In this document: one piece after another, positions 168-53,129 of the stretch
Position numbering within the stretch: the first letter of the stretch is position 1
Layout of the letters: each line of letters opens with the position of its first letter
Assembly (NCBI GenBank): GCA_031426355.1
Contig: JANPLD010000118.1
Span: 3,477 to 67,476, forward strand
Reading direction: 5' to 3'
Length of the DNA stretch: 64,000 nucleotides
Source of the DNA: Alphaproteobacteria bacterium
Lineage (GTDB): Bacteria > Pseudomonadota > Alphaproteobacteria > Rickettsiales > UBA8987
Made by a program: the position numbers and the translations under genes
Notes under the pieces: model-generated
Databases searched by the model: none
Seen by the model: only the letters and a program-made list of their open reading frames with translations
Told to the model about the DNA's origin: nothing

Positions 168-2117
168 ATGACTAAGCAGAATATTTTTGATAACTCACCT
201 ACTTCGCGCGTTACTTCAGAACAATACGAAACCACTTATCAGGAATCAATTACCGAAAATGATAAATTCTGGGGCAAGGCAGCCAAACAATTCCTCACCT
301 TCGAAAAAAAATGGGATAAAATTTCTGACTGGTCTTTCAAAAAAGACGATGTTCACATTAAATGGTTTGAAGGCGCTAAGCTTAATGTCTGCAATAACTG
401 CGTAGACAGGCACTTACCAAAGCGCGCCAGCCAGATAGCCATAATATGGGAAGGCGATAATCCTGATCAAAGCAAAAAAATAACGTACTCCGAACTCCAT
501 AAGGAAGTCTGCAAATTCGCAAACATCCTGAAAAATATCGGCGTTAAAAAATCCGATGTCGTCACCATTTACATGCCCATGATACCGGAAGCCGCTTATG
601 CTATGCTAGGCTGCGCTCGCATCGGCGCCATACATTCGGTCGTATTCGGCGGCTTCTCCTCCGAAGCATTAAAAGGTCGCATCGAAGACGGCAAATCAAA
701 ATTCGTCATCACCACTGAATCTGGCAACCGCGGCGGTAAAAAAACTCCGCTACTTGAGAATGTAACTGAGGCAGTAAAAAGCTTAGAAGGAATAAAAATT
801 TTAGTTATAGAATCCAAGAATCCAAATACTCAAGAATCTAAGAATCAATATTTCAACTATTCCACTCTCCACCAAACCGCATCTGAAGAATGCGCTTATG
901 AAATTATGGATGCCGAAGACCCGCTCTTTATCCTCTACACTTCTGGCTCCACCGGAAAACCTAAAGGCTTGGTCCACACATCAGCCGGATATTTACTCTA
1001 CACCGCCATTACTCACAAATACACTTTCGATTATCAGGATGGTGACATTTACTGGTGCACCGCAGATGTCGGCTGGGTCACCGGCCACAGTTATATAATT
1101 TACGGCCCTCTTGCCAACGGCGCCACCACCTTAATGTTTGAAGGCATACCTACTTATCCGGACGCCTCCCGCTTCTGGCAGGTAATTGATAAACATAAAA
1201 TCACGCAGTTCTATACCGCACCCACCGCCATACGTTCACTGATGGGCGCTGGCGATAATTTCGTTGAAAAAACCTCGCGCAAATCACTCCGCATTCTGGG
1301 AACAGTCGGCGAACCAATCAACCCCGAAGCATGGCGCTGGTATCACAAGATCGTCGGGAGCAGCAATTGCCCAATAGTCGACACATGGTGGCAAACCGAA
1401 ACCGGTGGCTTCCTTATTACTCCCCTACCATATGCCATCCCACAAAAACCTGGCTCTGCAACAAAACCATTCTTTGGCATCAAGCCCGCAATCGTAGACG
1501 ATAAAAACAACATCCTAACTTCCAATCCCCAACTCCCAATTCCCACAGTAGAAGGCAGCCTCTGCATCCTAAACTCATGGCCGGGACAAGCCCGCACCAT
1601 CTGGGGAGACCACCAGAGATTTGTCGAAACCTATTTTACCACCTTCCCCGGGAAATATTTTTCCGGCGATGGTGCAAGGCAGGATGAAGACGGTTATTTC
1701 TGGATTACTGGTCGCGTAGATGATGTTATAAATGTATCCGGCCACCGCCTTGGCACCGCCGAGGTGGAATCCGCCCTCGTGCTCCACCATTCAATTGCCG
1801 AAGCCGCCGTTGTAGGTTACCCGCACGATATTAAAGGTCAGGGCATTTATGCTTACGTAACTTTAAAGCAGAATATTAACCCGAGTGATCAACTTAAAAA
1901 AGAACTGGTCGAATTGGTAAAAAAAGAGATTTCCGCAATTGCCAAACCGGATGTTATCCAGTTCACTCCCGCTCTTCCAAAAACCCGCTCAGGAAAAATC
2001 ATGAGACGCATCCTCCGCAAGATCGCCGAAAATGATTTCGGCAATCTCGGCGACACCAGAACACTCCTCAACCCTGAAGCAGTTGATGAATTAATTAAAA
2101 ACAGAATCAGTAAATAA
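168..2117 (+). CDS. acs: acetyl-CoA synthetase
   Basis: 649 aa; AMP-binding signature [20 protein letters not shown]-terminal [11 protein letters not shown]; full-length ACS architecture. Confidence 0.95.
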
Positions 2118-15178: not shown

Positions 15179-15237
15179 AGTTTGAGATCTGAAGCTGAAA
15201 GAAGTTATAATAATCTTCAAACTTCCAACTTCAAACT
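15179..15237. repeat. palindrome with heptad-array arms (TTGAAG/CTTCAAA family) in secY-adk spacer
   Basis: Left arm agtttgagatctgaagctgaaagaag, right arm cttcaaacttccaacttcaaact; right arm is the reverse complement of the array at 51744-51767. Confidence 0.6.
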
Positions 15238-24188: not shown

Positions 24189-24264
24189 TAGTACTTGGTA
24201 CTTAGTACCTGGTACTTGGTTAATTAATAAATCTAAGTACCGAGTACTAAGTACCCGGCACTAA
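24189..24264. repeat. 76-nt imperfect palindrome with GTAC-heptad arms inside the S10 operon (rplV-rpsC spacer)
   Basis: Left arm ttagtacttggtacttagtacctggtacttgg; reverse complement of right arm ttagtgccgggtacttagtactcggtacttag; 25/31 identical plus 3 G-U-compatible positions; 13-nt AT loop. Confidence 0.75.
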
Positions 24265-27911: not shown

Positions 27912-27960
27912 CGGAACTTCAGAACCTCAGAATTTCTTTATTTCTGAGCTTCTGGAATCC
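27912..27960. repeat. heptad-array hairpin in the rpsJ (S10 operon) leader
   Basis: ggaacttcagaacctcagaat ... tttctgagcttctggaatcc; arms built of (C/A)(T/C)TCAGA heptads, related to the CTTCAAA family; 46-94 nt upstream of rpsJ ATG. Confidence 0.55.
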
Positions 27961-38595: not shown

Positions 38596-40023
38596 TTAAT
38601 GTCCACCATCACTTAATTTTAATCCGTAAACAGACAATATTCCATTTATCTTATCCTTAAGAGCATCAAGCTCAGCCTCTGAATTACCTTCCGCGCGGAT
38701 ACTGATAGCACTTTGCGTGTTAGAAGAACGCACCATCCACCACCCGCCTTTTTCCATTACCCTTATCCCGTCGATCTCGCTTACTTCCGCAGGAGATTCT
38801 TTTATTTTTGCTCGTATTTCTTCCACTATCCTGAGTTTATCAGCTTCAGGAACCATTATACGGTATTCAGGCGATGCATAAGATTTCGGCAATTTTGAAA
38901 CTGCGTCACTTGGCTTAAGTTTTCTTTTTACAAAATAATTTATCAGGCGAACTGCCGCATAGACCGCATCATCATATCCATAATTCTTATCATTAAAGAA
39001 AATATGCCCGCTCATTTCCCCTGCTAACGGTGCGCCGGTTTCCATAAGCTTCTGCTTGATGAATGAATGCCCGGTTTTCCATATTATAGCCTCACCGCCA
39101 AACTCCTTAACCTTATCAAAGAATGCCTGACTGGCTTTCACATCCGCGATTATCTTTGCACCTTTAATATCCGCCAGAACATCATCGGCAAAAAATATCA
39201 TCATCTGATCACCCCAGATTATCCGCCCTTCTCCATCCACAGCACCGATCCTGTCACCATCACCATCAAATGCCAATCCAATGTCGCATTTCTCTTTTTT
39301 TACCAGATCAATTAGCTGTTGTAAATTCTCCGCAACTGTCGGGTCTGGATGATGCGCCGGAAAATTCCCGTCGATCTTTTCATTTATCAGGAAATGTTTT
39401 GCCGGAATTCTTTTTACCAGCTCCCCAACTATCTCACCCGCAGAACCATTCCCCGGATCCCACGCTATTTTAAGGTCTTTTAGGAATTCATTTGAACCTT
39501 CTAGCGCTCCCGCAAGGTTGTTCAAATATTCTTCTTTCACAGGAAAATTATGAACCACTCCTTTGCCTTCTGCAAAATCCCCAGCCTCACACATGCGGCC
39601 TATTTCTTTTATTTCTTCACCAAACAGCGGCGCCTTATTATACATCATCTTAAAACCATTATCCTGCTTCGGGTTATGCGATGCAGTAATAACCATCCCA
39701 CCATCCATATTTTTAGAGCGCACAGTAAAATACACCATCGGGCTTGGTCCAACGCCTATGTCAAACACTTCAGCTCCGGCATCCACCAAACCTTTTATAA
39801 CTTCCGCTTTTAATGACGGCGTTGATATCCTACCATCATAACCAAGCACGAGCTTTGGGTTTTTATTATTTGTTTTTCTGATTATCTTGGTCGCAAATGC
39901 GCGCGCTATATAATAAGCATCTTCCGTAAATATCTGTTTCCCCACTTCCCCGCGTATATCATACGCCCGCAGCGCCGTTGAATTTAAAACTTTAGAGGGG
40001 GTAAGGGAAAAGGGGTAAGGCAT
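38596..40023 (-). CDS. phosphomannomutase/phosphoglucomutase (alpha-D-phosphohexomutase)
   Basis: 475 aa; active-site TASHNP, metal loop DGDGDR, GEMSGH; first 9 codons lie inside a heptad repeat array so the start is uncertain. Confidence 0.9.
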   Translation of the reverse strand: MPYPFSLTPSKVLNSTALRAYDIRGEVGKQIFTEDAYYIARAFATKIIRKTNNKNPKLVLGYDGRISTPSLKAEVIKGLVDAGAEVFDIGVGPSPMVYFTVRSKNMDGGMVITASHNPKQDNGFKMMYNKAPLFGEEIKEIGRMCEAGDFAEGKGVVHNFPVKEEYLNNLAGALEGSNEFLKDLKIAWDPGNGSAGEIVGELVKRIPAKHFLINEKIDGNFPAHHPDPTVAENLQQLIDLVKKEKCDIGLAFDGDGDRIGAVDGEGRIIWGDQMMIFFADDVLADIKGAKIIADVKASQAFFDKVKEFGGEAIIWKTGHSFIKQKLMETGAPLAGEMSGHIFFNDKNYGYDDAVYAAVRLINYFVKRKLKPSDAVSKLPKSYASPEYRIMVPEADKLRIVEEIRAKIKESPAEVSEIDGIRVMEKGGWWMVRSSNTQSAISIRAEGNSEAELDALKDKINGILSVYGLKLSDGGH

Positions 40024-40032
40024 AAGGGATAT
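39998..40032. repeat. array of five GGNNTAA heptads (left arm flanking the four-helix-bundle gene)
   Basis: ggggtaa gggaaaa ggggtaa ggcataa gggatat; reverse complement reads CCTTNNN heptads like the right arm. Confidence 0.75.
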
Positions 40033-40033
40033 A

Positions 40034-40405
40034 TTATATTTTTGTTTTTAGAACTTTTCGTAATGTATTAAGCATTTTTTCTATCTCTCTTATATTTAAA
40101 AATATCTCTTTTAAATCTTCTTTTTTACAAAGCTCAATATCAAAACAAATTATTAATTGCGTTTCAACTTCTGCAAGGGATCCAAGTGCTATGGATAAAA
40201 AATTGATAAAATCTTTTGTACTTCTCCTCGTATGACCTTCAGCAATATTGGAAGGTACAGAAACTGCCGATTTCCTAACTTGAGAAGTAATCCCATATAA
40301 TTCCTCTTTTGGAAACTTCCTTGATAAAAAATATACGTCTTTTGCTAAAATCCTCGCCTTTTTCCAAACCTCTAAATCCCTAAAACTTTTTATCTCTTTT
40401 GTCAT
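40034..40405 (-). CDS. four-helix-bundle protein (23S rRNA intervening-sequence protein / Avd-like family)
   Basis: 123 aa; FRDLEVWKKA...FPKEELYGITSQVRKSAVSVPSNIAEG...FLSIALGSLAEVETQL is the family signature. Confidence 0.9.
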   Translation of the reverse strand: MTKEIKSFRDLEVWKKARILAKDVYFLSRKFPKEELYGITSQVRKSAVSVPSNIAEGHTRRSTKDFINFLSIALGSLAEVETQLIICFDIELCKKEDLKEIFLNIREIEKMLNTLRKVLKTKI

Positions 40406-40410
40406 AAGTT

Positions 40411-40445
40411 CCTTATCCCTTCCCCCTTAAGCCTTATCCCTATTG
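40411..40445. repeat. array of five CCTTNNN heptads (right arm flanking the four-helix-bundle gene)
   Basis: ccttatc ccttccc ccttaag ccttatc cctattg; inverted with respect to 39998-40032; a related array lies at 41962-41994. Confidence 0.75.
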
Positions 40446-40802
40446 TTACTTCACCTTCTCACATTTATTGTGGTTACATTCCAGTTTAATATTTTCCTTC
40501 TCACATTTTACCGCGCAGACATTATTACAAATACCTTTAAAACTTGCTTTTCTTTTCTCCACTATGGTCTGGAATATTTTATGAACATAGAATTTACACC
40601 CGAGCGGGCACATACCTTCCATCACAACGCAGTCTTTATCTGCCTGGCAATGCCTTGCTTCCCTTAAAAATTTCTTAAAATCCGCAACAGCCTGCCCGCA
40701 TTCTGAAAGCTGCATAGCCTTAAGCCCCCTCATCTGCTCACCGTCAGAAGCAAGTGGAAAACAAATCAAAATCAGGAACCCAAAAAATATGATCTTTTTC
40801 AT
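40446..40802 (-). CDS. small secreted Cys-rich protein, translationally coupled to ispB
   Basis: 118 aa; signal peptide MKKIIFFGFLILICFPLA, 12-13 Cys; ATG overlaps ispB stop (TAATG). Confidence 0.5.
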   Translation of the reverse strand: MKKIIFFGFLILICFPLASDGEQMRGLKAMQLSECGQAVADFKKFLREARHCQADKDCVVMEGMCPLGCKFYVHKIFQTIVEKRKASFKGICNNVCAVKCEKENIKLECNHNKCEKVK

Positions 40803-41791: not shown

Positions 41792-41827
41792 AATTTATCT
41801 AAAATATAAAAATTAATCCCTCTCCTT

Positions 41828-41960
41828 CTTACGGGAGAGGGTTGCGAAGTCTTGCTTTCACAAGAAAGCTAGACGAAGCTGGGTGAGGGTTCATAGTTAA
41901 TAATAACACCACCCCTCACCCTAACCCTCTCCCACAAGGGAAGAGGGAAATAGATTTCTA
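41828..41960. repeat. REP-like cluster of GC-rich hairpins (GGGAGAGGG / GGGTGAGGG motifs)
   Basis: ccctctcc-ttcttac-gggagaggg; gctttc-acaa-gaaagc; gggtgaggg...ccctcaccc; ccctctccc-acaa-gggaagaggg; GC-rich island in AT-rich spacer. Confidence 0.75.
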
Positions 41961-41961
41961 A

Positions 41962-41994
41962 CCCAACTCCTAACTCCCAACGCCTTATTCCCAA
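41962..41994. repeat. heptad array (CCNAANN / CCTTATT type) abutting the squalene-synthase stop codon
   Basis: ctaaccc aactcct aactccc aacgcct tattccc aatcacg; end resembles 40430-40445 (gccttatccctattg vs gccttattcccaatc). Confidence 0.55.
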
Positions 41995-43693: not shown

Positions 43694-44329
43694 CTAACTC
43701 ACAATATCTTTTACAAATGGAATAGTTATATTCCTTTTTTTCTCAAGGGATTGTTTGGAAATCACTGCTATCGACTCAATTATTTTTCTGTAATCGCGCT
43801 CCATTCTTTTTGAAAGGAACTCCACCACATCAATTGAAACCGTCATCTGCCTGTCAGAAAACAGCTTTATTATCAGCGCCTTTATAACCTCATCATCAGG
43901 CTTTTCTATTATGATATTATAAGCACTTGAGATGCGCGATTTCAGATCATCAGAAAAAGCTTCGCCTTTCGCCTCTTTTATTTCCGCAGCCGTTTTAGTT
44001 GAGGTCAGCAGTAACTTCCCCCCCTCATTATTAATTTTATTTATCAAATGAAATAACTCTTCCCCACCAGCCTTATCTAACTTCTCTATATCTTCAACTA
44101 ACTTCAAACTTCCATCTTCAAACCTCAAACTATTCTTACTGACCCATATATTCGCCAGATGCGTTTTCCCGCTCCCTTCAACTCCGCTAATTAGCGCAAT
44201 ATTCCCCACCCATTCCTCCAGCGGCGACATAACAAAATCAAATGCAGCCTTATTACTCGTTCCAACAATAAAATCGCTTTTTAAATAGCTTTCAAGATCA
44301 CTAAATTCTAATAAAAACTGTTTTGCCAC
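43694..44329 (-). CDS. hda: DnaA regulatory inactivator Hda/HdaA
   Basis: 211 aa; N-terminal QFLLEF clamp-binding-like motif, FIVGTSNKAAF, Walker A GVEGSGKTHL. Confidence 0.75.
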   Translation of the reverse strand: MAKQFLLEFSDLESYLKSDFIVGTSNKAAFDFVMSPLEEWVGNIALISGVEGSGKTHLANIWVSKNSLRFEDGSLKLVEDIEKLDKAGGEELFHLINKINNEGGKLLLTSTKTAAEIKEAKGEAFSDDLKSRISSAYNIIIEKPDDEVIKALIIKLFSDRQMTVSIDVVEFLSKRMERDYRKIIESIAVISKQSLEKKRNITIPFVKDIVS

Positions 44330-51734: not shown

Positions 51735-52655
51735 TTAGTTTTTAGTTTGAAGATTGAAGTTGGAAGCGCTACTATTTCTTCTAAAAGCTTCCAGCGTATT
51801 TTTAAGCAAACAGGCTATAGTCATAGGCCCAACACCGCCGGGAACTGGAGTTACTGCAGAAGCAACTGAGGACACATCTGTAAAATCAACATCACCCACC
51901 AGTTTTGAATCAACACGGTTAATTCCTACATCAATAACAACTGCGCCTTCCTTCACCCAGTTGCGCTTTACAAGTAATGGCTTGCCTACTGCTACAACTA
52001 GTATATCCGCGCCTTTGCATACATCTTCAATATTCTTAGTTCTGGAATGGCAGATGGTTACCGTACAACCTTCATTAAGTAGAAGCTGGGACATCGGCTT
52101 GCCGACTATATTACTACGACCCACAACAACGGCATTCTTGCCGGAAATATTATCACCAAGAACATCTTTTACAAGAAGCAGGCAGCCTAGCGGAGTACAC
52201 GGCACCAGCGCATCTTTACTGCCCGTTACGAGCAGGCCGCGGTTCACAACGTGGAAACCATCAACATCTTTTGCGGGGGAAATCGTTTCAATTACCTTGT
52301 CTTCAGATATATTCTTCGGAAGCGGTAACTGAACAAGTATCCCATGTACTTCAGGATTATTATTCAACTCTTCTATCTTTGATATCAGCTCATTTTCAGA
52401 TATGCCGGAAGGGTATTTATATTCAAAATTCTGCATCCCGACTTCAACGGTCTGCTTTGACTTATTACGTACATAAACTTCAGATGCTGGGTCTTCTCCA
52501 ACAAGTATCACAGCCAGACCCGGCTGCTTACCGGTTTTAGCTTTAAGTTCGGCAACTTCATCTTTTATTCTAGCACGAAGCGTTTCTGCGAATTTTTTAC
52601 CATCTATTATTCTCGTCATTTTCATCTGGCTTGGTTTGACTGGTTGATAGGGCAT
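51735..52655 (-). CDS. folD: bifunctional methylenetetrahydrofolate dehydrogenase/cyclohydrolase
   Basis: 306 aa; [44 protein letters not shown]; last ~10 codons lie in a heptad repeat array. Confidence 0.95.
51744..51767. repeat. TTGAAG heptad array inside the folD 3' end
   Basis: ag tttgaag attgaag ttggaag c; near-identical to the reverse complement of 15215-15237. Confidence 0.6.
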
Positions 52656-52678: not shown

Positions 52679-53002
52679 CTACCTTATGAGTGAGCCGTCA
52701 CTGTCAAACATATCGAGCTGAGAGAATAATTTATCGGTAAGATCCATAAATTTAGAGTTTTGTAAGGCTATAACCTGCTTCAGGTAATTCTCATCCCAGT
52801 ATCGCATTACTTTATCGCGCTCCATAGCATTCTCATGCTTTGAATGCATCTCATAATATAAAAGCTTGGAAAGTTTCTTTTCTTTTTTGGAATCGTTATT
52901 CTCACGTTTATGCTCGATCACTTTACGGGCAAGGTTGCGGCAGACATTTATAGCCATCACGCTGTTGTTATCATCGGTCATTATATAAACGTAGTAAGGC
53001 AT
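52679..53002 (-). CDS. GIY-YIG nuclease-superfamily small protein (degenerate second motif)
   Basis: 107 aa; YYVYIMT start, NLARKVIEHKRE, LLYYEMH....A..RDKVMRYW pattern of the small GIY-YIG (YhbQ-like) family. Confidence 0.6.
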   Translation of the reverse strand: MPYYVYIMTDDNNSVMAINVCRNLARKVIEHKRENNDSKKEKKLSKLLYYEMHSKHENAMERDKVMRYWDENYLKQVIALQNSKFMDLTDKLFSQLDMFDSDGSLIR

Positions 53003-53129
53003 TCGTTGATTCGTTGATTCGTTGTTTCGAATATAACAAAATAAAACAAACCAACAAAATCAAATATTACTTTAAAGAGTATTTGATTCCAAAAAACAAA
53101 TCAACGAATCAACAAAACAACGAATCAAC
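53002..53129. repeat. palindrome with TTCGTTGA octamer-array arms filling the whole fpr / GIY-YIG spacer
   Basis: Left ttcgttga ttcgttga ttcgttgt ttcg; right tcaacgaa tcaacaaa acaacgaa tcaac (inverse units); inner hairpin caaatattac...agtatttg. Confidence 0.75.

Follow-up and report, generated by a model that had tools for sequence, protein, structure and literature searches.

Some intervening sequences (IVSs) of bacterial 23S rRNA enclose an open reading frame (ORF) for a small protein of the PF05635 family. In Coxiella burnetii, RNase III cuts the 28-bp terminal stem of the IVS in helix 45, and tandem GACAGAT heptamers, whose number varies between strains, stand just before its S23p ORF (PMC4990558). 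The origin of rRNA IVSs is unexplained (PMC4990558), and the protein family was called functionally uncharacterised in 2024 (10.1101/2024.02.27.582315). Heptamer repeats are in turn reported to be over-represented in bacteria, with "no detailed literature"; Xanthomonas carries GGGAATC arrays with 70-75 convergent inverted pairs, and cyanobacteria carry STRR/GGGGAYT repeats (PMC4692102). In this study, we analysed a 64,000-nt stretch of an alphaproteobacterial assembly (GCA_031426355.1, contig JANPLD010000118.1, positions 3,477 to 67,476; hereafter the window), in which a four-helix-bundle (FHB) gene of this family lies between two mutually complementary arrays of heptads. We consider it probable that positions 39998-40445 are a self-contained cassette of about 450 bp, consisting of this gene and the two complementary heptad arms that accompany it, inserted between a gene for a Cys-rich protein and a PMM/PGM gene (PMM) in an ispB operon. 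The features of the locus are as follows.

38596-40023, minus strand: PMM/PGM gene; the 3' arm provides its ATG (40021-40023) and codons 1-9
39998-40032, minus strand: 3' arm, C-rich on the minus strand, TATATCCC TTATGCC TTACCCC TTTTCCC TTACCCC
40034-40405, minus strand: FHB gene, 123 aa, full-length member of PF05635 / TIGR02436 / NF008911
40411-40445, minus strand: 5' arm, G-rich on the transcribed minus strand, ATAGGGA TAAGGCT TAAGGGG GAAGGGA TAAGGAA
40446-40802, minus strand: upstream neighbour, a lineage-specific secreted Cys-rich protein (orphan), with its own stop codon kept

On the plus strand, 39998-40032 reads as five heptads (GGGGTAA GGGAAAA GGGGTAA GGCATAA GGGATAT) and 40411-40445 as five heptads of the complementary type (CCTTATC CCTTCCC CCTTAAG CCTTATC CCTATTG). 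A repeat search returned the two as inverted arms of 37 nt (39998-40034 and 40404-40440), 76% complementary and separated by 369 nt, and a tandem-repeat search (TRF) gave the left array a period of 7 with 4.9 copies. The letters and the repeat search thus bore out the original prediction of two inverted five-heptad arrays bracketing a 123-aa FHB gene. That the arms adjoin the Cys-rich stop codon and cover the first 9 PMM codons (MPYPFSLTP), as had also been claimed, could be read directly from the coordinates: the stop codon (40446-40448) adjoins CCTATTG, the outermost heptad of the 5' arm, which ends at 40445, and the 3' arm begins directly after the FHB stop codon and holds the PMM start codon. 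The inner end of the 5' arm lies 5 nt before the FHB ATG, and its innermost unit has an AAGGA Shine-Dalgarno-like motif. The ispB, Cys-rich, FHB and PMM genes all lie on the minus strand, and the GC content of the FHB gene was 29% (21% at third codon positions, GC3), compared with 39-43% in the neighbouring genes.

We compared the ispB-PMM region across 68 PMM loci from species genomes. The gene order of squalene/phytoene synthase (SQS), ispB, Cys-rich gene and PMM was kept in only one of them, a Pseudomonadota metagenome-assembled genome (L002) whose PMM was 61% identical to that of the window. There, 21 nt separate the Cys-rich stop codon from the PMM ATG, and neither the FHB gene nor heptads are present, so the block is absent from the one syntenic relative. 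This comparison supports the view that the FHB gene and its arms are an insertion at a point where only a very short spacer parted the Cys-rich gene from PMM. The assembled contigs of the window's own sample contained no empty form of the locus, and a search for closer relatives through the Cys-rich protein returned a single 565-nt contig that was uninformative. Rfam models detected no rRNA anywhere in the window, and the flanking genes are protein-coding.

We then asked how the layout is distributed in the gene family, using 80 members from metagenome contigs, of which 74 gave usable loci, and 131 other genes on those contigs as controls. A locus was scored as armed when the 90 nt ahead of its start codon and the 90 nt that follow its stop codon had a mutual complementarity score of at least 12. 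The results showed that 48 of the 74 family loci were armed (53 of 74 with 250-nt flanks), compared with 3 of the 131 controls (Mann-Whitney p = 4e-16). Two of the three armed controls turned out to be divergent FHB family members, each with its own, different heptad unit, and two FHB genes that share one contig carry different units. In a separate sample of viral contigs, 33 of 44 family members were armed. These results show that the armed layout is the rule for the FHB gene family and is specific to it. The outcome that the original prediction had named as fatal to it, other family copies of the genome devoid of inverted arms, was not what we found when relatives were checked instead. The third armed control was a 408-aa FtsX-like permease gene (L081, 3522-4745) between complementary AATTACA heptad arrays (score 18.5), the sole gene outside the family with such flanks among the 131.

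The arms of armed loci had a lag-7 identity of 0.47 against a background of 0.28, and among 96 arms the best period was 7 in 69 and 8 in 22. The closest homologues of the window's gene, 55-61% identical to it, occupy unrelated loci, namely between serS and surE (L069), between rsmB and rpe (L071) and after a PAPS-reductase gene (L073). All three carry TTAGGGA TTAGGCA TTGGGCA upstream and TGCCTAA TGCCCAA TCCCTAA downstream; their unit dialect is TTAGGGA/TTAGGCA, compared with TAAGGGR/TAAGGCT in the window, and a 14-nt super-unit is common to both. Dialect classes clustered on the protein tree, with 8 changes as against 14.7 ± 1.5 for shuffled labels, and the six members of one well-supported clade had related arms and unrelated flanking genes. 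Such comparisons, made at the level of sequence, show that the arms belong to the gene and not to the site.

Among cultured carriers, plasmids of Nostoc punctiforme, Anabaena variabilis and Picosynechococcus PCC 7003 show the armed layout; in the last of these (Picosynechococcus sp. PCC 7003; L169, 1192-1548) the armed gene separates cas10/cmr2 from cmr3 in a type III-B CRISPR operon. Two plasmids of Nostoc sp. PCC 7120, alpha and gamma (L164 and L165), hold identical FHB genes that have kept the 3' CCTTCTGCC array and have transposase genes upstream, indicating that insertion sequences can strip an arm. Rfam models applied to 20 loci found no rRNA context, and the only hits were two tRNAs, both around one family member. 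That member (L147, 1231-1850) lies between the two tRNA genes, in a stable-RNA operon that is not an rRNA operon, and its sister L127 has the same arms in another context. Five further loci (L118, L119, L097, L104 and L135) have a G-type array, a C-type array directly before the gene, the gene and a second C-type array; in this layout the single G-type arm could pair with either C-type arm, and the gene would fall inside one of the two possible stems and outside the other.

A phage relative provided a second comparison of filled and empty sites. In the viral contig L171, a cassette at 1455-1883 lies antisense between the lambda-type head decoration gene D (PF02924) and the major capsid gene E (PF03864). 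Assembled contigs from four lake metagenomes contained this filled form alongside forms that skip from 1453-1455 to 1882-1885. The skipped stretch, 426-430 nt with 3-9 other letters in its place, is exactly both arms and the gene; in the empty forms the D stop codon is followed 2-3 nt on by the E start, with no trace of a hairpin. In the capsid gene, the lineages that carry the empty forms have diverged by about 9-12%, so the difference reflects gain or loss between close relatives and not necessarily ongoing excision. No target-site duplication was visible at the junctions of filled and empty forms. These results show that the FHB gene and both arms are present or absent as a whole block between closely related genomes. 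The claim of a cassette-like insertion was thus upheld by the empty site in L002, the atypical GC content, the dialect shared with homologues elsewhere and this filled/empty polymorphism.

To establish the identity of the FHB protein, we compared it with family models. ORF 40034-40405 matched PF05635 with 139.8 bits (cut-off 33.8) over profile positions 1-105 of 106, TIGR02436 with 131.8 bits (cut-off 24) and NF008911 with 145.6 bits (cut-off 137), which assigns the predicted product to PF05635 / TIGR02436, the 23S rRNA IVS protein family. The top relative in the Protein Data Bank (PDB) was 2GSC (Xanthomonas campestris XCC0516; E 1.3e-22), an entry with five chains, and 2RLD was also similar; a toroidal homopentamer is cited for family relatives (PMC4990558). 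Fifteen positions were invariant across 35 family sequences, and the window's protein is intact with every one of these residues present, indicating that it is under selection. The protein had been described as Avd-like. This holds at the level of the superfamily, to which weak matches to bAvd/Avd models point (NF033474, 23.2 bits; phrog_3206, E 1.6e-5), and fails for Avd itself, since the NF033474 score is far below its cut-off of 80 and no reverse transcriptase occurs among the flanking genes (ispB, the Cys-rich gene, PMM, squalene/phytoene synthase and an orphan). Compared with the Avd proteins of diversity-generating retroelements, the FHB protein therefore shares the fold superfamily and differs in falling below the equivalog cut-off and in having no reverse transcriptase or template/variable repeat pair adjoining. 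It matched no PADLOC defence model at E <= 0.01.

The insertion also bears on the start of PMM. The PMM ORF begins at ATG 40021-40023 within the arm unit GGCATAA (CCTTATG on the minus strand), and no alternative ATG, GTG or TTG lies upstream of the conserved ALRAYDIRG motif; the sole possible start is therefore inside the arm, and codons 1-9 are arm-encoded. The N-terminus ahead of (S/T)ALRAYDIRG is not conserved in PMM proteins, and the sequences MPYPFSLTPSKVLNSTALRAYDIRG here and MTKNARKINPSALRAYDIRG in L002 first come into agreement at about residue 10, which indicates that the arm replaced the original first codons. A repeat element can in this way rewrite the start of an essential-type enzyme gene. 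Since the PMM ATG lacks a Shine-Dalgarno sequence and lies 10 nt past the stop codon of the FHB gene, PMM is likely translated by reinitiation after translation of the FHB gene, that is, by translational coupling. In L071 the start codon that comes next shares letters with the FHB stop codon (TAATG), and in L171 the end of the cassette brings an AAGGA motif ahead of the capsid gene ATG. Flanking genes would thus stay expressed through signals provided by the arms: here the 3' arm would give PMM its start codon, probably through termination and reinitiation, and in L171 the cassette end would give a Shine-Dalgarno sequence.

We next considered the pairing of the arms. The arm duplex had a predicted energy of -38.0 kcal/mol in the sense and -44.1 kcal/mol in the antisense direction, compared with -20.4 ± 3.7 (minimum -32.5) for 500 shuffles, and the long-range stem appeared in both the minimum-free-energy (MFE) and the centroid folds of the whole 476-nt cassette RNA. 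In the mechanism that we favour, the cassette would be transcribed with its host operon, and the arms would pair into a stem of about 30 bp enclosing the ORF, as in ORF-bearing 23S rRNA IVSs. This stem would be a substrate for RNase III, so that, in either orientation, the insert would be excised from the host transcript or insulated inside it. The G-rich array is 5' on either strand of the cassette. The RNase III step would make insertion between genes tolerable wherever the insert lands. Judged from the layout shared with ORF-bearing 23S rRNA IVSs, pairing of the arms in the host transcript followed by RNase III cleavage of the stem is most likely. The original prediction had proposed the topology of ORF-bearing rRNA IVSs outside rRNA, and the predicted fold, with the ORF enclosed by a long inverted-repeat stem, supports it as an analogy.

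Several observations weigh against this account. Mismatches in the arms showed no wobble strand bias (39 G:U versus 43 A:C), the comparison of sense and antisense duplex energies split the loci 22:26 (p = 0.92), and at the window locus the antisense stem is the more stable; with no strand bias in pairing, the complementarity could be kept at the DNA level. Cassettes were co-oriented with their neighbours in about 80% of cases only and the L171 cassette is antisense, so sense co-transcription is not a requirement; this is only a slight excess over the usual co-orientation of genes that adjoin in operons or elsewhere. About one quarter of the family members had no detectable arms. The window's locus had one syntenic relative only, and a distant one by its PMM. 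In a search of sequencing runs, the window locus was found only in one DNA sediment metagenome, and two other loci (L124 and L190) were found in no RNA run. Strand-neutral pairing fits an element that folds whichever way it is transcribed, and fits maintenance at the DNA level equally well.

The composition of the arms was also analysed. In all 48 armed loci the 5' arm was rich in G (36% G and 8% C) and the 3' arm rich in C. This property is strand-symmetric, and we therefore rejected it as evidence on gene orientation. Arms without C, or without G, would be unable to fold on themselves, and transcription of the G-rich arm first would keep a C-rich, Rho-loading stretch from being exposed. The number of units per arm had a median of 3.4 with a broad distribution, no peak at five and no correlation between the two arms of a locus, and the idea of one heptad per subunit of a pentamer (five heptads) was rejected as a rule on this ground. 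Stop codons numbered 110 in the 5' arms, compared with 82 ± 6 in shuffles, and all three frames were covered in 11 of 48; TAA was rarer than TTA, and a stop was present in 26 of 48 consensus units. With this inconsistent enrichment, a role of the arms as all-frame stop insulators was weakly supported. A G-quadruplex reading was set aside, as most dialects have no G-tracts.

Arrays without an ORF also occur. The window contained 12 matches to the TAAGGGR-type dialect pattern, compared with 1.9 ± 1.4 expected, and two arrays of the cassette dialect stand apart from the FHB gene.

41962-41994, minus strand: ORF-less G-type array in the cassette dialect, TTGGGAA TAAGGCG TTGGGAG TTAGGAG TTGGGTT
1514-1546, minus strand: cassette-dialect array within a coding region resembling acetyl-CoA synthetase, of the C-type when read along that gene; plus strand CCAATCC CCAACTC CCAATTC

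The array at 41962-41994 heads the 203-nt spacer between SQS and ispB (41792-41994), which had a folding energy of -85 kcal/mol (z -5.8) and a terminator-like hairpin at 41841-41818. This spacer is missing in L002, where SQS and ispB overlap by 23 nt, which makes it a second insertion in the same operon. The array at 1514-1546 preserves the reading frame, its three heptads making 21 nt, and presumably adds about 7 codons (SNPQLPI) relative to the E. coli Acs sequence. Outside the window, a 4113-nt contig of the same sample (depth 8.0, compared with 6.9 for the window contig) has a 30/31 copy of the left arm (40001-40031), followed 8 nt on by heptads of the complementary type (CTTCCCC TTAACTC TTTTCTC); this array is likely an ORF-less hairpin of the cassette dialect. 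An 8738-nt contig (depth 7.9) has a 31/36 match to the conserved FHB core (window 40236-40271) and likely holds a second family member in the same sample. All these ORF-less arrays are compatible with being cargo-less derivatives of cassettes, the origin that the original prediction had suggested for empty palindromes. The other heptad/octad hairpins of the window have units that differ from those of the cassette. A second dialect, CTTCAAA / TTTGAAG, occurs at no fewer than three window sites (15179-15237, 44100-44130 and 51735-51766) as one hairpin and two solo arrays, and the window has no FHB gene of that dialect.

The same observations allow other explanations. The heptad arrays could be generic spacer filler of this genome, the gene having entered the loop of a hairpin already in place or adjoining the arrays by chance. 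ORF-less heptad/octad hairpins at 15179-15237, 24189-24264, 27912-27960 and 53001-53129 would fit such filler, as would the same-dialect arrays at 41962 and 1514. We consider this explanation very improbable, since the empty sites of L002 and of the L171 relatives have no hairpin at all and so contradict it at two loci, related genes in other genomes and at other loci bear the same dialect, and 65-75% of family members are armed, compared with about 1% of control genes. Alternatively, the element could act as DNA, with the arms serving as terminal inverted repeats or hairpin-forming ends for recombination or replication slippage in trans and with the RNA stem being incidental. The strand-neutral complementarity, the presence or absence of the whole block at sites just 2-21 nt wide, the ORF-less copies of the cassette dialect, which recall MITEs (miniature inverted-repeat transposable elements), and the occurrence of the cassette in either orientation relative to host genes all agree with this. 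No transposase or recombinase is associated with the cassette, however, the L171 junctions show no target-site duplication, and arm sequences vary more widely between cassettes than a single trans-acting enzyme would tolerate; on balance we regard a DNA-level element as unlikely, though well ahead of generic filler.

A further alternative concerns the protein, which could itself read its heptad arrays in a sequence-specific way, the arms being putative binding sites for autoregulation, protection or mobility and not primarily an RNase III stem. Unit dialects are kept even where the proteins share only 55-60% identity, a distance at which neutral DNA should be randomised; the arms show strong skew and repetition beyond mere complementarity; relatives form pentamers (the five chains of 2GSC and the toroidal homopentamer); and the protein is strongly conserved at its 15 invariant positions. 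However, the unit number with its median of 3.4, breadth, lack of a peak at five and lack of correlation between arms speaks against such a reader, and common descent with concerted evolution would explain the conservation of dialects equally well. We therefore hold a reader to be possible and slightly more credible than a DNA-level element, while still unlikely. It is compatible with a cassette and differs from the RNase III stem in mechanism.

The locus and the samples tie the PF05635 family, heptamer repeats and rRNA IVSs together. Both within rRNA and outside it, on chromosomes, plasmids and phage genomes, the FHB gene moves together with inverted heptad arrays of its own and is gained or lost as one block. 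The protein family, the ORF-bearing rRNA IVSs, the heptamer repeats and their inverted pairs were known already; a full-text literature search found no publication linking the FHB gene family outside rRNA to inverted heptad arms. A more far-reaching proposal, which we put forward tentatively and consider doubtful, is that FHB IVS proteins and tandem heptamer arrays form one widespread system of autonomous and non-autonomous elements, in which a pentameric protein would recognise its own 7-nt dialect and the ORF-less hairpins and solo arrays would be cargo-less derivatives serviced by it. Under this proposal, such derivatives would include the spacer arrays of this genome and the unexplained heptamers of Xanthomonas, cyanobacteria and many other bacteria. 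If it is true, more than 20,000 sequence clusters would gain a function (PF05635 has 23,496 representatives at 50% identity, E <= 1e-3), and the repeat period most over-represented in bacterial intergenic DNA would gain an origin. The link between the gene family, heptamer repeats and IVSs is testable in cultivable carriers, namely the Nostoc punctiforme plasmids, Xanthomonas campestris XCC0516 and Picosynechococcus PCC 7003.

Among known mobile units, integron gene cassettes (an ORF with attC) are likewise promoterless single-gene units with imperfect inverted repeats that sit tightly between co-oriented genes; unlike the present cassette, which has two flanking arms and no integrase nearby, they carry a single attC hairpin on one side of the ORF and depend on the integrase IntI. 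With regard to features of the transposon type, inverted arms are present, no duplication is visible at the filled and empty L171 junctions, and the cassette has no transposase; the window junctions are not definable to the base. MITEs, repetitive extragenic palindromes (REP) and Rickettsia palindromic elements resemble the cassette as small palindromic elements that spread in intergenic DNA, and the Rickettsia elements can also add codons to host genes. The cassette differs from all three in having a conserved protein gene in its loop and tandem heptad arms that vary between cassettes, and in the lack of any transposase or target duplication seen.

The heptameric repeats of Xanthomonas and cyanobacteria (PMC4692102) share with the arms their 7-nt units, intergenic position, convergent pairs with the G-strand inward and length variation between strains. 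One Xanthomonas array, four copies of GGGAATC that appear uncommented in the repeat table (PMC4692102 supplement), lies over the start of XCC0516, the crystallised member of the FHB family. Those repeats were treated as quadruplex-forming or unexplained, with no link to FHB genes, whereas most arms here and in the samples have no G-tracts. With the 23S rRNA IVSs of Coxiella burnetii, Leptospira and others, the cassette shares a long inverted-repeat stem whose loop holds a gene of the same protein family, with heptamers next to the ORF. Unlike these IVSs, it lies between protein-coding genes of an operon and not in 23S rRNA, and its arm encodes the start of a host protein; RNase III excision is established for the IVS and would apply to the cassette by analogy. 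Both are regarded as selfish and horizontally moved.

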